DNA of 64,000 nucleotides, from contig MGJF01000002.1 in assembly GCA_001794125.1 (NCBI GenBank), forward strand, positions 236,514 through 300,513. The letters are read 5' to 3'. Positions 35,501 through 52,853 of this stretch are shown here, piece by piece (within the stretch, counting starts at the first letter, position 1; each line of letters opens with the position of its first letter). The position numbers were made by a program, and so were the translations under genes. This DNA is from Candidatus Yanofskybacteria bacterium RIFCSPHIGHO2_01_FULL_43_32 (GTDB taxonomy: Bacteria > Patescibacteriota > Minisyncoccia > 2-02-FULL-40-12 > GWA2-44-9). Below the pieces are notes generated by a model, which was given only the letters and a program-made list of their open reading frames with translations, was not told where the DNA came from and did not search any database.

Positions 35501-36457
35501 ATGACTTCAGATAAAATAAGAGTGGTCTGTTTCGGAGGAGGTACGGGATTGCCAACCCTGCTTTCGGGGATTAAAGCGAATCCTTTCTTTGAGATATCGG
35601 CCATCGTGACAATGTTTGATACCGGGGGAAGTTCGGGAAAACTTAAAGATAAATTCGGCATACTTCCTCCCGGTGATATTCTAAAATGTATTTTGGCCCT
35701 ATCAAAAAACGAACAGGCCACGCGTGAGATATTCCTGAAAAGAATTACGGATATAAATTATCCGGGCCATACCGGCGGCAATATTCTTTTGCTTGGCCTT
35801 GAAAAGGTCTACGGCAGCCTGACAACGGCTATTAACGCCCTCGGCGAAATATTATCAGCCTCCGGCAAGGTGTACCCCGTAACACTTGCCAAAAGCACTC
35901 TTTGCGCGGAATTTTCAGACGGAACAACCGTAAAAGGAGAAACCCTTATAGATGTGGGGATATTTGAGGGCAAAGCAGTAAAAAAACTTTTTCTTAATCC
36001 GAGCATTAAAGCCAACCCCAAGGCTTTATCAGCCATAAAAAAGGCGGACATATTGATAATGGGTCCCGGCAGTTTTTACACCAGCCTTCTTCCTAATTTT
36101 CTGCCTCAAGGCGTCAAGGAAGCTATAAAGGAATCCGAAGCAAAAACAATTTATGTCTGCAATCTCTTGACCGAAGGTTATGGAATGAAAAATTACAAAA
36201 TGGATACTTTCATAAAAACAGTTGAATCATATGCCGGCCGTAAAATTGACAGGGTTATAGCAAATTCTCATATTCCTTCAAAGCGTCTCGGCGAATATGC
36301 CGCAGAAAGAAAATATCCCGTCAAAATATCTGGCAAATTTCCAAAAAATAAAATTGTGGCAGCGAATCTCTGGACCGACTCTAATTTGGCCCGGCATGAC
36401 CAAAAAAAATTATCTTACCTTATAGACAGAGTTGTTTTTAGTCTTCTGAACCTCTAA
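35501..36457 (+). CDS. YvcK/CofD-like (UPF0052) gluconeogenesis-factor family protein
   Basis: RVVCFGGGTGLPTLLSGIK N-terminus. Confidence 0.75.
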   Translation: MTSDKIRVVCFGGGTGLPTLLSGIKANPFFEISAIVTMFDTGGSSGKLKDKFGILPPGDILKCILALSKNEQATREIFLKRITDINYPGHTGGNILLLGLEKVYGSLTTAINALGEILSASGKVYPVTLAKSTLCAEFSDGTTVKGETLIDVGIFEGKAVKKLFLNPSIKANPKALSAIKKADILIMGPGSFYTSLLPNFLPQGVKEAIKESEAKTIYVCNLLTEGYGMKNYKMDTFIKTVESYAGRKIDRVIANSHIPSKRLGEYAAERKYPVKISGKFPKNKIVAANLWTDSNLARHDQKKLSYLIDRVVFSLLNL

Positions 36458-36998
36458 ATTTTTTATTTCTTCTCATGAAAGAAACGACCGCGATAGGCGC
36501 CAAGAACCAATAAAATAATGCCTCGTGAGTTGAGAAATACTCGGAAACATAAGACAGATTGCCCGATATTTTTAAAACGCTCACCGGAACTATGTTTGTG
36601 GTTATTGTAATCAAAAGTCCTAATTGCATGATACTGATGATGGAAACCGATAAAAAAGATGCCTCTTTGATGGTCAGACGGCTTTTGACAAGAGAGTTGT
36701 TGAGCACGGCGAACACTAATACATAAACAAACAAGAACAATCCGACGCGCGTAATATACAACTCCGGCGATATTTTGATGAGTTCGTGCAAGCGGTCAAG
36801 GTAAGGGAATACCGACATGATTGCGTAAGCGATATAAATCCCCAAAAGAGATATCAGCGCCCGCGTCCTGCCCAAGCTCAACCCGTAAAGCAGTAAAAAT
36901 ATCAGGCCCAAAATGGCAAACAGCCCGGAAGGCCCGAAATTAAAATTAAAAAGATTGGTTATCGCAGCTAAATTAAAATTTGGAATATATTTCTCCAC
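36438..36998 (-). CDS. Polytopic membrane protein, hypothetical
   Basis: 5-6 TM segments. Confidence 0.5.
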   Translation of the reverse strand: MEKYIPNFNLAAITNLFNFNFGPSGLFAILGLIFLLLYGLSLGRTRALISLLGIYIAYAIMSVFPYLDRLHELIKISPELYITRVGLFLFVYVLVFAVLNNSLVKSRLTIKEASFLSVSIISIMQLGLLITITTNIVPVSVLKISGNLSYVSEYFSTHEALFYWFLAPIAVVSFMRRNKKFRGSED

Positions 36999-37026
36999 TG
37001 ATTAAAGTATAACACGCTTCTTCAGT

Positions 37027-37440
37027 TTCGCCTCTCCCCATTTCCGACCTGTTGCCTGCGCCTCCGGTCTCCTTCGGACAAATCATCAAATTATTCTCAA
37101 TTTGCTTAATAAATTTCAGTAACCGTTCTTTCTTCATAAGATTCAGGAATTTCCGACTAAAATTTATTGGGATTAAGCAAATTATCAAATAATTTGATGA
37201 TCGTGTTACCCTCGGAGGCAAATGGTCTGAAATGGGGGGAAGCCTGCACTTTAAGTTGACAAGTAAAATCCCAGCCATATCCCTGTCTGAATCACTCCTC
37301 GCAGCGATACGGTAACATAAAGAAGCTGACAGATAGGAAATTGAAGCTATAGTCGAAGCGATCGCTTCAATTTCCGTACATCCGTCAGCTCTTTTGTCGT
37401 ATCGCGGAGATGTGATGAAGAGAGGGATTGGCAGGGAATA
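37027..37440 (+). repeat. ~410-bp structured non-coding element, family 2 copy B
   Basis: shares three conserved blocks with 16330-16740; internal long inverted repeat ATCATCAAATTATT..ATTTGCTTAAT/ATTAAGCAAAT..AAATAATTTGATGAT and hairpin GAAATTGAAGC...GCTTCAATTTC. Confidence 0.6.
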
Positions 37441-37500: not shown

Positions 37501-37839
37501 CTATTCTCTCATTTCCGGATAGAATTCGGGGCATACATGAGGCCGGCCCGTGGTGGTTCCGCATAGTTGGCAAGAAAATGTTCGTCCTTCTTTTTGGTTT
37601 TGTTCTTGCATAAATTTAACCCCTAAAACCGTAGGGACATAGCGATATCTTTCCGGAATTTGACTGACCAATTGCAGCAGGCCCATAGCGCACATTGCCC
37701 GTAATTCTATCTCCAAGTGACTTTGTTCCTTGTTGAGTTTGGCGGCAATTTCAGGAAGAGTGTGAATATTATGAGCTAATTCCAAAACCTTATCCCAACC
37801 CCTCTCCGCGGCAAATTCAAACAACTTTTCTTTCGTCAT
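37501..37839 (-). CDS. Small hypothetical protein, winged-helix-like core plus C-terminal zinc ribbon (CQLCG...CPEF)
   Basis: palindrome CTGATAAtttTTATCAG in its upstream region. Confidence 0.45.
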   Translation of the reverse strand: MTKEKLFEFAAERGWDKVLELAHNIHTLPEIAAKLNKEQSHLEIELRAMCAMGLLQLVSQIPERYRYVPTVLGVKFMQEQNQKEGRTFSCQLCGTTTGRPHVCPEFYPEMRE

Positions 37840-38600: not shown

Positions 38601-39407
38601 CTACTTAATCCTGATATTCAATACCAAATCCCCTGACATCTTTCCGGCTTTGCCGGTGTTTCCGCCTTTGGGAATAACTATATTGTAATTATTTTCTAAA
38701 TTTTCGGGAATGCGGATTTCCAGTTTCTTTTTGGCTTTAACCCTGCCCGCTCCTTTGCACTTGGAACATTCTTTTTCGGGCATCCTGCCTTTGCCTCGGC
38801 AAGTACCGCAAACACCAATACGGGTAAACATGCCCATCGCAGTCCTTGAGGTATATCTTATCTGGCCGGTGCCATGGCAGGTGTTGCAGGTAATAATTTT
38901 ATATCCCTTGGCAACTCCTTGCCCCGCGCATTCATCGCAGGTTCCAAATGAATCATATTCAACCGTCTTGGTAGTTCCTAAATCTTTTTTGCTTATAGTC
39001 AACTCCAGATACAAATTCTCCCCCTTTGAGTCCTCTTCTTCCTGTTGGGGCTGACGGAATCCGCCGAAAACATCCGAGAACATTTCAAACAAATCCTCGG
39101 CTCCGCCGGTTCGCCCCTGTGAACCGCCGAAGAAATCCCAGAAGTTTCCTCCCTGTCCGCCAAAATCATATCCCCCCTGCTGGAATCCCCCATCACTGTA
39201 ACCAAAACCGAAGTTGTCGTAATTAGACCTCTTCTTTGGATCGGATAAGATTTGATAGGCCTCGTTTATCTCCTTGAACTTCGCCTCATTGCCTGTTTTC
39301 TTATCAGGATGATGCTCGTGGGCCAACTTACGAAATGCTTTCTTAATCTCATCTTCCGAGGCATTTCTCTGAACACCTAATATATTGTAATAATCCTTAT
39401 TTTGCAT
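38601..39407 (-). CDS. dnaJ: Molecular chaperone DnaJ (short form: J-domain, G/F region, CxxCxGxG zinc finger, truncated C-terminal domain)
   Basis: [31 protein letters not shown]; four CxxCxG repeats. Confidence 0.8.
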
Positions 39408-39440
39408 AAAAATGGCTTATTTTCTTACTATTTTACACTA

Positions 39441-39542
39441 CTTGACCCCTCACCTTTTGAGCAATTGTGATTATATCACAATTTTGCAGATTTTTGCTCG
39501 AAAGGTGAGGGGTTGACAAAATGATTCAATATATGATATAAT
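39441..39542. promoter_or_regulatory. Divergent promoter/operator region: 21-bp inverted repeat CTTGACCCCTCACCTTTTGAGC / GCTCGAAAGGTGAGGGGTTGACAA, inner palindrome AATTGTGATtataTCACAATT, and plus-strand TTGACA(39513)-18-TATAAT(39537)
   Basis: read directly. Confidence 0.55.
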
Positions 39543-39547
39543 TAAAA

Positions 39548-39996
39548 CATAGTTACGTAATCGCCGTTTTAGAGGCCCGGCGGCTTGTAGAATAGAGCCT
39601 CAAAGTTCTTCGAAATTCGGGGGGGTGCACGACACGCGACCCGATAGAGGGTTGGCGCGCAGTTCTCTCCCGATACCTGGCCAGAAGGAAAAGATCGGCA
39701 GCGACGAGTGATGCGCAGATGGCGCATCTGTTGTCATGGGCTGTCGACAAGAACCCCTTCTGCGAAAGGCCGGATCAGACGCACCAGGGCGTCCCGGCGT
39801 TATTCGTCTTTTCGGCGGATAAGAACCTGCCTTGTGCATTCACAGGTAGGAATGCATCGTAAAGCGGTAGAGGCCTCAAGCCCAATTCCGCAGCTGGGTA
39901 CGTCAACCCCAGCACGCGTCTTCCTTTTGCGGAGTGGTCTCCTAACCGTGCTTTAGCCGGTTAAGGAACTCTGTCGGGAAGGCGTTTTTTGTTTTT
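39548..39996 (+). ncRNA. Candidate abundant structured ncRNA (GC-rich, ORF-free); possibly RNase P RNA (P4-like GAAAGGCCGG...AGGGC and AGCCGGUUAAGG) but unconfirmed
   Basis: consensus promoter immediately upstream, GC ~58 % vs AT-rich genome, many local hairpins, ends in T-run 39985-39996; followed by 19-bp stem hairpin 39997-40059. Confidence 0.45.
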
Positions 39997-40060
39997 CCCC
40001 GCCGTTGAAAAGAAATGGTTTGCAACAATGCCAAAGGCAGTTTCTTTTCAACGGCGGGGT

Positions 40061-40855
40061 TTAAACCACCAACACTTCCGCTTTCACATCCTTCTCTTCG
40101 GTCCGGACAACCCGGGTCTTTTTTAATATCCAGAACAAAATCATTCCGACCAGCATACCGCACCAGATAAAAATAAATGACAGGCCAGACAAAATAAGAA
40201 ACAGTCCAAATGCCAATATCGGCGGCGCAAACCGGAAATACGGTTTTAAAAATTGGTTGACTTGCTGATAAGCCTGACTGGCAATTTGGCCGACAATATA
40301 TCTACGTTCAGCGGCATTTTGCGTGTCCAAACGCGGACCGATAAACTTATCAGCGACCTGCTGAAAAAAAGTCTGCGTCTGACCGGGCAAAGCGCCGGCT
40401 TTTTCTATTTGAGTTAATAACGGACTCTGATATGCGGCAAAGGATATCATTACAAAAAGCCCCAGGACCACTGATGTAAGACCATGATAAAACATGTCGG
40501 GAATGTTCATTATTTTCCGTTCAATAATCTCGCGCCGGACCCGGTTGGCTGACCAGAGGTTAAAAATCAGAAAAATTCCAACGGCGACAAAATTAAGCCA
40601 ATTCCAGCCAAAAACATAAAGAAATATAAGTCCTATGATTCCGGCCGTGGTCAGAGACCAGCGCCGCTGTTGGAACAAAACATATCCAAGCACAAGAACC
40701 GCAATTAGCAAAACGAAAGCACCCAGAGCCGGTATCTTGAAGTCGATTCCCGTAACGGCATCAAATTTAGCCGACTGACCGCCTAACCACATCCGCCAAG
40801 CCAAAACCGCCACCCCCGCATGCCAGATAATTAGTTTTGTTGTTAATTTATTCAT
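40061..40855 (-). CDS. Polytopic membrane protein, hypothetical
   Basis: 7-8 TM segments. Confidence 0.55.
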   Translation of the reverse strand: MNKLTTKLIIWHAGVAVLAWRMWLGGQSAKFDAVTGIDFKIPALGAFVLLIAVLVLGYVLFQQRRWSLTTAGIIGLIFLYVFGWNWLNFVAVGIFLIFNLWSANRVRREIIERKIMNIPDMFYHGLTSVVLGLFVMISFAAYQSPLLTQIEKAGALPGQTQTFFQQVADKFIGPRLDTQNAAERRYIVGQIASQAYQQVNQFLKPYFRFAPPILAFGLFLILSGLSFIFIWCGMLVGMILFWILKKTRVVRTEEKDVKAEVLVV

Positions 40856-52635: not shown

Positions 52636-52665
52636 TTGACAAATAGGGTTAAAGTATGCTATAAT
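52636..52665 (+). promoter_or_regulatory. Consensus sigma70 promoter TTGACA-18-TATAAT driving small peptide gene
   Basis: read directly. Confidence 0.6.
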
Positions 52666-52700
52666 ACATTCATAAGCAGTTCCCAAAAAAGGAGTGCGCC

Positions 52701-52853
52701 ATGAGAAGCATTGTTGGAATTCTCGGACTGCTCGTTTTCCTTGTCCTCGCCTATCTGGCCGCCGGTTCCTACATCGACGGCATCAAGGCGAAAACCGAGA
52801 CGAAGTGCTCCGAAACGCGCCAGACCCTCGGTCTGTGCGAACCAGGCAAGTAG
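52701..52853 (+). CDS. 50-aa small membrane peptide (N-terminal TM helix, polar C-terminus with two Cys); type-I-toxin-like architecture; below the 60-aa ORF-track cutoff
   Basis: AAGGAG RBS 8 nt upstream of ATG, consensus promoter, strong terminator; GC-rich coding. Confidence 0.45.
   Translation: MRSIVGILGLLVFLVLAYLAAGSYIDGIKAKTETKCSETRQTLGLCEPGK

Follow-up and report, generated by a model that had tools for sequence, protein, structure and literature searches.

The DNA examined here is a 64,000-nucleotide (nt) stretch, hereafter the window, from Candidatus Yanofskybacteria bacterium RIFCSPHIGHO2_01_FULL_43_32 (contig MGJF01000002.1); all coordinates are window positions and gene strands are given relative to its plus strand. 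Our subject is the gap between dnaJ (38601-39407, minus strand) and a gene for a 264-amino-acid (aa) membrane protein (40061-40855, minus strand), the latter preceded on the minus strand by ASCH, dnaK, grpE and hrcA, a heat-shock cluster. The original prediction, made from the letters alone, had proposed that this gap encodes an unannotated structured RNA with its own plus-strand promoter, perhaps the RNA of RNase P. Comparison with related loci bore out the first part of this proposal, as promoter and terminator are conserved in relatives and the fold shows strong covariation, pseudoknot included. We hold with high confidence that this gene for a structured RNA is real and represents a new family, and that it is not RNase P. 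The gene lies on the plus strand, opposite to both flanking genes, and is convergent with the membrane-protein gene and its operon.

The segment 39548-39996 has a GC content of 55.5% vs 42.6% for the whole window, which places it in the top 0.1% as the GC-richest 449-nt stretch there; a GC profile over 200-nt windows peaks at 60.5%. A GC-rich island had thus been called correctly, although its value of about 58% was an overestimate. The plus strand folds at -186.5 kcal/mol (z = -5.1), a value equalled by none of 100 shuffles, and the minus strand folds more weakly (z = -2.95). All the local hairpins that had been listed are present where they were placed, and no tandem or direct repeats were found in the RNA region.

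That this segment is a small protein-coding gene has a practically negligible probability in our view. Its longest sense open reading frame (ORF), at 39708-39956, has 82 codons and a GTG start, and the promoter type described below also drives short GC-rich ORFs with Shine-Dalgarno sites elsewhere in the window (52701-52853, plus strand; ~31104-30860, minus strand), both of which could be taken in favour of coding. The 82-aa ORF, however, lacks a Shine-Dalgarno site, and the longest sense ORFs of 39 relatives range from 18 to 177 aa and shift in frame and position, none being conserved. Moreover, insertions and deletions sit in helices and do not preserve a frame, and substitutions compensate base pairs. 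The earlier judgement that only spurious ORFs are present holds.

The transcription unit is well delimited. The perfect promoter that had been read directly upstream (TTGACA at 39513, an 18-nt spacer, TATAAT at 39537) scored 12/12, carries a TG extension, and is the sole perfect promoter site within 38.5-41 kb. A promoter of the type TTGAC-N9-CAAnRTRTGnTATAnT occupies the equivalent position in ~50 related loci; in the window this type has 3 matches vs 0.16 expected. At the other end, a GC hairpin followed by a U-run closes every 3' end among the related RNAs. The terminator stem is capped by a UUCG loop in relatives L106, L021, L064 and L077 (loci of relatives are cited by such numbers), and in the window this loop is occupied by an insert that we call module B. 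The T-run (39985-39996) and the 19-bp perfect-stem hairpin behind it, both noted earlier, were found again, the hairpin arms lying at 39997-40015 and 40041-40059.

Two short GC-rich hydrophobic ORFs elsewhere in the window stand under the same promoter type, in units at 52636-52853 (plus strand) and 31160-30860 (minus strand). Each of these ORFs (50 aa at 52701-52853; ~31104-30860) comes with a good Shine-Dalgarno site and a terminator of its own.

Relatives were collected as a graded series through aligned homologues of the membrane protein, yielding 38 genome loci and 80 metagenome loci. Searches with nhmmer, using the RNA of the window and then those of the relatives, always placed homologues directly downstream of the membrane-protein gene and on the opposite strand. 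In this way homologous RNAs were located at ~35 loci of Yanofskybacteria and other Paceibacterota, all lying between dnaJ and the gene of the membrane protein. R1, a covariance model, was built from 13 relatives with the window sequence excluded. It matched the window at 39664-39803 with 31.5 bits (E = 1.6e-4) as well as 35 loci, 35/35 being syntenic and co-oriented with one copy per locus; in 19 more distant loci it had no match. R2, a wider model based on 38 hits, scored the window at 58.3 bits.

Neither R1 nor R2 detects certain other RNAs of this locus, among them those of the L013/L014 type and those of L059, L072, L016, L018, L057 and L076. These unreached RNAs share the promoter, the linker motif GUUCUUUC..AAUUCGG and helix Pa with the family, and L059 and L072 also follow the same pseudoknot plan. 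A second RNA type was seen at the same spot in L013, L014, L052, L063, L067 and L076. It shares promoter, linker and Pa, and after these it has CUGAAAUCCGG-loop-CCGGCACCCGA and a conserved hairpin GGGGUAAACGGGUAAGCCCUC; the core models miss it.

The conserved core has a fixed order: a pyrimidine-rich linker, A(A/G)AUU, helix Pa, AUA, CCUGG, a single C, hairpin Pb, CGAA with a linker, hairpin Pc (loop U(A/U)CCAGGG), and CACCGU. The window possesses this proposed core (Pa, GAUA-CCUGG, Pb, CGAA and Pc with its CCAGG loop), as found by both R1 and R2. Junction and loop bases are near-invariant; the helices covary and vary in length. Pa has the common form CGGGACGG/CCGUCCCG and occurs in compensated variants in the window, L104 (CGGGAGUUAG/CCAACUCCCG), L059 (CGAUAGAAA/UUUCUAUCG) and L072, with G.U pairs consistent with the plus strand. 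The length of Pb depends on lineage, from ~25 nt in L097 to ~85 nt. In Pc (helix 6), 10/10 pairs show changes on both sides; its usual form GCCGGA/UCCGGC is replaced by ACUGGA/UCCAGU in L088, by GUCGGUG/CACCGAC in L025 and by GGUCGGCGAUA/UAUCGCCGACC in L058.

The CCUGG strand behind Pa pairs with the CCAGG of the Pc loop, forming an H-type pseudoknot that encloses Pb and is paired in 98% of cells. Its variants remain complementary: U.G pairs occur in L078 and L085, an extra U-A pair in L025 and L058, and a shift to CUGGC/GCCAG in L059, L072 and L093. In L074 and L079, a C-G to U-A exchange (CUUGG/CCAAG) is found in second copies of the core. The 5' domains of these two RNAs (4106-4228 in L074 and 3155-3279 in L079, minus strand of the respective locus) are a diverged second core copy, with a compensated pseudoknot, so that the core is duplicated in tandem there.

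A whole-RNA MAFFT alignment was unusable owing to the variable arms. Pairs were counted on a model-derived alignment with the pseudoknot added. On that alignment, whose fit to the model inflates pairing, 90.4% of cells were paired, pseudoknot included, vs 32-43% with slid partners, and 27/32 pairs had changed on both sides; 0/500 shuffles attained any of these pairing measures, and the distance from the controls is wide despite that inflation. G.U cells outnumbered A.C cells (38 vs 18), and this excess, together with promoter and terminator, fixes the plus strand as the transcribed one. The elements of the gene and its borders are collected in Table 1.

Table 1. Elements of the RNA gene and of its borders in the window
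Feature	Position	Strand	Remarks
Inverted repeat H2 (ACCCCTCACCTTTTGAGCAA/TTGCTCGAAAGGTGAGGGGT)	39445-39513		20-nt arms, 95% complementary; abuts the -35 box
Sigma-70-type promoter, TTGACA-18 nt-TATAAT with TG extension	39513-39542	+	12/12 match; predicted start ~39549
Predicted primary transcript, structured non-coding RNA, ~448 nt	39549-39996	+	From promoter, fold and lack of a conserved ORF; ends inferred from promoter and terminator
5' H-type pseudoknot	39562-39601	+	Stem 1 CGCCG (39562-66)/CGGCG (39578-82); stem 2 GAGGC (39572-76)/GCCUC (39597-601); read from sequence
Pyrimidine-rich linker and AAAUU (GUUCUUCGAAAUU)	39605-39617	+	Form GUUCUUUC..A(A/G)AUU in nearly all RNAs at the locus, including those beyond the models
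Helix Pa	39618-39672	+	CGGGGGGG (39618-25) pairs with CUCUCCCG (39665-72); variable interior
Junction AUA and pseudoknot 5' strand CCUGG (39676-39680)	39673-39681	+	GAUACCUGGCC near-invariant
Hairpin Pb	39682-39762	+	CAGAAGG...CCUUCUG, tip GAUGCGC/GCGCAUC; helices 2-5, 92-100% paired, every pair changed on both sides
Junction CGAAAG and hairpin Pc	39763-39798	+	GCCGG (39769-73)/CCGGC (39794-98); GACGC/GCGUC; loop CCAGG (39784-88)
3' accessory domain	39799-39914	+	Second H-type pseudoknot, then hairpins 39864-39891 and 39893-39913
Intrinsic terminator	39915-39996	+	CGUCUUCC (39917-24) pairs with GGAAGGCG (39977-84), then UUUUUUGUUUUU (39985-96)
Module B, ~50-nt hairpin	~39925-39976	+	Apical loop UGCUUUAGC; replaces the UUCG terminator loop
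Hairpin H1, 19-bp stem	39997-40059		Arms 100% complementary; between the RNA terminator and the membrane-gene stop codon (40061)

Around the core, the RNA of the window carries three accessory parts: the 5' pseudoknot, the 3' pseudoknot domain and the hairpin in the terminator loop. Both stems of the 5' pseudoknot covary, being CCCGC/GCGGG and GGGCUCC/GGAGCCC in L098 and L082, and GCCGC/GCGGC and GGAGCCCC/GGGGCUCC in L087; the module is present in L054 and L081 as well, and its stems covary in L081 too. The 3' domain is common to the window and L095, L098, L100, L071, L082 and L088, and many relatives lack it and pass from Pc directly to the terminator. Its pseudoknot consists of CCUG (39826-29) with CAGG (39843-46) and of UGCAUUC (39835-41) with GAAUGCA (39850-56), the latter pair being replaced by CUCUUU/AAAGAG in L098 and L100. 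When this domain was submitted to RNAalifold, only two hairpins were recovered. Other relatives have different 5' domains, including the duplicated core, or none, and some RNAs at the locus measure only ~170-250 nt; in L072 the whole RNA is ~170 nt long and Pc doubles as terminator.

As an insert in the terminator loop, module B is found in the window only among the homologous RNAs, and it stands at other places in L019/L080, L012 and L014, where its stems covary. A further structured segment of the window, 37000-37440, lies between genes for proteins of 112 aa (37501-37839, minus strand) and 186 aa (36438-36998, minus strand) and contains two near-perfect hairpins of ~170 and ~240 nt, with a minus-strand minimum free energy of -176.4 kcal/mol (z = -10.4) and no Rfam match. 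The homologous gap of L019 (6900-7260) holds module B.

The RNase P lead was examined against both databases and relatives. At gathering score, Rfam 15 recognised two tRNAs only in the 64-kb window and gave no matches in ten related loci. Relaxing the search to E <= 10 at 39350-40150 produced chance matches only, nearly all to microRNA models and on both flanking hairpins. The same threshold in L013 (4780-5230) and L072 (860-1060) returned chance matches, mostly to microRNA models, mainly on flanking or terminal hairpins and, in the case of L072, on the antisense strand. Neither RNase P model, RF00010 or RF00011, matched these segments of the window, L013 and L072 at E <= 10, although this limit may hide scores of ~5 bits such as those reported for diverged members (PMC8172020). 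RNase P RNAs from Candidate Phyla Radiation (CPR, Patescibacteria) members often fall below Rfam cut-offs: in 10/35 circular CPR genomes they lie far under the RF00010 threshold, with scores down to 5 bits and several helices missing, yet these genes retain many conserved RNase P features (PMC8172020). Since such RNAs are often missed at Rfam cut-offs, the missing match was deemed insufficient and comparative data were used.

These data make a strongly diverged RNase P RNA very improbable. In 39 RNAs of the locus, the conserved region CR-V (ACAGAAnnCGGCUUA, up to 2 mismatches) was found in 0/39, ACAGAA in 2/39 and AAAGUCC in 1/39, and a P4 helix formed from CR-I (GGAAAGUCC) and CR-V was found in neither the window nor the relatives. 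A size of ~450 nt and a strong promoter would be compatible with RNase P, and the two strings that had been read as P4 strands, GAAAGGCCGG (39764) and AGCCGGUUAAGG (39955), could pair. These strings and a third one resembling CR-IV (39843) are present as reported, but they do not represent conserved P4 or CR-IV elements. The first is the junction CGAA with a variable linker and the 5' strand of Pc, and relatives have CGAAAAUCGCCGG, CGAUAAAACCCCGCCGG and others in its place; the supposed partner lies inside module B, the terminator-loop insert of the window only; and the string resembling CR-IV runs across the 3' pseudoknot, part of a domain that is optional. Moreover, members of the family go down to ~170 nt, and in a locus-level comparison the gene is missing at this site in close relatives.

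Transfer-messenger RNA (tmRNA) and signal recognition particle (SRP) RNA, which had been named as alternatives, fared no better, and we regard any other housekeeping RNA, 6S RNA included, as highly improbable. The string of pseudoknots recalls PK1-PK4 of tmRNA, and a strong promoter with a discrete terminator is typical of stable RNAs. Against this, the Rfam and homology checks proposed at the outset gave no match for RNase P, tmRNA, SRP or 6S RNA, and revealed instead conservation in syntenic relatives, while ARAGORN detected two tRNAs and no tmRNA in the window. A T-arm-like motif occurs in 1/39 RNAs and the SRP helix-8 motif (GGAAGCAGC) in 1/39; the 5' and 3' ends do not pair as an acceptor stem, and no tag frame is conserved in the 39 relatives. 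A 6S RNA would be a rod with a central bubble, and the fold found here is branched and pseudoknotted. Absence from this site in close relatives argues in the same direction. Module B was also considered as a tmRNA tag (GCU UUA GCC GGU UAA) and rejected, its stop being unconserved in L019 and L012. Resemblances to 5S helix I, to an FMN element and to a T-box were discarded, as no model matched.

The distribution of the gene is patchy. The membrane-protein gene is followed by dnaJ in every locus, with a gap that is bimodal: at most 35 nt in ~34 loci, including L011, L050, L053 and L073, or 230-1460 nt with the RNA gene. The DnaJ proteins of these four loci, which have no RNA gene here, are 78-96% identical to that of the window over the sequence compared. 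In L049 (DnaJ 90% identical), the site is empty and has one inverted repeat that resembles a fusion of H1 (left arm) with H2 (loop and right arm). Judged from these sequences, the RNA gene is accessory at this locus. Structurally, the junction itself is a hot spot: its gaps measure 0-16 nt, ~160 nt holding one inverted repeat only, or 230-1460 nt. Strains with DnaJ at 86-92% identity share only 44-49% identity in the membrane protein, a discrepancy that suggests recombination or fast evolution around the junction.

This pattern raises the alternative that the unit is a by-product, either an insertion remnant or cargo at a recombination hot spot or a convergent unit insulating dnaJ from the upstream operon, with a functionless RNA product. 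Presence/absence polymorphism at one site among close relatives, the two similar inverted repeats flanking the unit and the matching empty site of L049, the shuffling of modules between relatives and loci, and a GC content unlike that of the genome would all fit it. We nevertheless consider it improbable. The structure is under strong purifying selection, with compensatory changes in Pa, Pb, Pc and the accessory pseudoknots that span RNAs whose neighbouring membrane proteins share only 40-60% identity, and such compensatory evolution is not accounted for by a non-functional insertion remnant. Promoter and terminator are kept everywhere, the gene is single-copy at each locus, and neither transposon-type terminal repeats or target duplications nor internal repeats are present. 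Viral carriage found no support either: a blastn comparison of the RNA with 50,697 phage records gave no match, and in a search of IMG/VR with the exact 14-mer CGATACCTGGCCAG all of the matches listed (at least 120 stretches) were chance matches in high-GC coding DNA. None of those listed had the downstream CUGCGA/CCAGG architecture, and there was no true viral copy or viral-contig match among them.

A regulatory reading in which the core is the aptamer of a riboswitch-like sensor was weighed. The sensor would set termination vs read-through, the latter running antisense into the membrane-protein/dnaK operon, or the RNA would be a ligand-bound small RNA (sRNA) like EutX/Rli55. Conservation is aptamer-like, with an invariant junction, loop and pseudoknot among variable helices; in many relatives the terminator follows Pc directly, and in L072 Pc is itself the terminator hairpin. 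The sequence would allow GGGACGG, the 5' strand of Pa, to pair with the tail CCGUCUU, and the gene is convergent with the operon. Other observations tell against this reading, which we take to be quite unlikely. No co-oriented gene lies downstream, the next one (40061-40855) being on the opposite strand, so the RNA is not a 5' leader. In the window and six relatives a domain of ~110 nt separates the core from the terminator. By inspection, the antiterminator pairing is lost in L104, L059 and the window though Pa stays compensated. Any read-through would be blocked by the 19-bp hairpin behind the terminator, and no known aptamer family of Rfam matches.

On balance, we lean towards a stand-alone gene for a structured non-coding sRNA of an uncatalogued family, found in a clade of Yanofskybacteria and related Paceibacterota, that acts through its pseudoknotted core, with partner and function drawn by inference. 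How it might act can be proposed tentatively. The RNA would be a trans-acting, stably folded particle in which a protein or a small ligand binds specifically to the invariant pseudoknotted core, and the swappable modules could contribute stability or additional binding sites. A bolder version, which we put forward as speculation and think doubtful, would see in the invariant pseudoknotted three-helix core the active centre of a class of functional RNA that is new and restricted to CPR bacteria, either a new ligand-sensing aptamer on a trans-acting sRNA or the new core of a small ribozyme or ribonucleoprotein. Swappable modules and strain-level gain and loss would then reflect diversifying selection, for example in the interaction of episymbionts with host or phage.

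Several points weigh against the favoured view of a trans-acting sRNA family. All relatives were obtained through the neighbour gene, so that the sampling is that of this locus, and no gene of the neighbourhood tracks the RNA, as ASCH and membrane-protein genes occur with and without it. Some members beyond the models (the L013/L014 type, L059, L072 and L018) are tied to the family partly by motifs read by eye. The bases of the pseudoknot are almost invariant, making its direct covariation thin (1/5 pairs changed on both sides), and the pair counts carry the inflation mentioned above. Finally, transcript, ends and abundance are predicted from sequence.

Two more specific modes of action were tried and rejected. 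For seed pairing by GUUCUUUC, the complement GAAAGAAC was not enriched in the window (4 found vs 3.9 expected). The protein CsrA binds the consensus RUACARGGAUGU, as defined by systematic evolution of ligands by exponential enrichment; the Pc loop AUACCAGGGUGU is consensus-like, but it mostly reads GGG and not GGA, and there are one or two such loops per RNA, which does not suit a CsrA sponge. A search of the six neighbour proteins for an RNA-related partner found none: Pfam recognised ASCH and DnaJ only, and the 264-aa membrane protein has no Pfam family.

The unit is bordered by two inverted repeats. H1 is kept in L013, L064, L074, L061 and L062, and other long hairpins stand in its place in L106, L098 and L095; it forms the right boundary and is probably a two-way transcription block. 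An arrangement of the H2 type also occurs in L095, L079, L100 and L013, and H2 delimits or insulates the RNA unit on its left side. Within the loop of H2 lies a perfect palindrome, TTGTGATTATATCACAA (39465-39481); on the minus strand it reads TGATATAAT, likely the extended -10 element of dnaJ. Palindrome and 20-nt arms look operator-like. They are not a canonical CIRCE element, although hrcA belongs to the same cluster.

Patescibacteria make up a large share of bacterial diversity, and in the literature searched neither this RNA nor any other lineage-specific structured sRNA of the group was described, the single relevant paper being that on diverged CPR RNase P (PMC8172020). The locus yields a new RNA family with ~35 syntenic homologues, a pseudoknotted core backed by covariation and a usable covariance model. 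Its evolutionary behaviour is unusual, combining a fixed core with exchanged pseudoknot modules and a gene gained or lost between strains. In practical terms, GC-rich islands of CPR genomes that resemble RNase P RNA should be called rnpB only where the P4 signature is present, and pull-downs of ligands or proteins have a defined target in the conserved core. Should this core bind a metabolite or be catalytic, microbial dark matter would have supplied a new class of riboswitch or ribozyme; if it does neither, the RNA would be one more orphan bacterial sRNA.

Among known systems, EutX and Rli55 are riboswitch-containing sRNAs, and riboswitch-controlled antisense RNAs also exist. Like them, the present RNA has an aptamer-like conserved core and then a terminator, lacks an ORF beyond that, and is convergent with an operon; unlike them, it matches no known aptamer, its antiterminator pairing does not covary, and many members have extra domains before the terminator. 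Type III antitoxin RNAs (ToxI-like) are made of tandem near-identical pseudoknot repeats followed by a toxin gene. Pseudoknots, a strong promoter and a patchy accessory distribution are shared with these, whereas tandem repeats and a co-oriented downstream toxin gene are lacking here. With tmRNA, the RNA has in common several H-type pseudoknots arranged as beads on a string (PK1-PK4 in tmRNA), lineage-variable around a conserved part, and a strong promoter. It differs in having no tRNA-like domain, CCA end, T-arm or tag frame and in being dispensable at the locus in close relatives. RNase P RNA (RF00010/RF00011 and the diverged CPR forms) is similar in size range, in its long-range pseudoknot and variable peripheral helices, and in the difficulty of detecting its CPR versions, but the RNA described here lacks P4, CR-I/CR-V and the other conserved regions, and its members go down to 170 nt.

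The closest counterparts are the orphan sRNAs recovered by screens of GC-rich intergenic islands from the Breaker laboratory, such as the raiA motif RNA and other motifs named after their lineages (PMC6429828, PMC8632094, PMC11109978). They too occupy a GC-rich island in a long intergenic region, with their own promoter and terminator and no associated downstream ORF, and show conserved pseudoknots, covarying helices and a narrow taxonomic range. The present RNA has no sequence or structure match to them in Rfam 15 and comes from Patescibacteria, which are without mention in the 50-genome screen (PMC11109978). It is also unusually modular, with swapped pseudoknots and presence or absence between close strains. 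It is thus a new family within a known kind, that of orphan, independently transcribed structured sRNAs, set apart by a host range within the CPR, by pseudoknot modules arranged like beads and by gain and loss at strain level.

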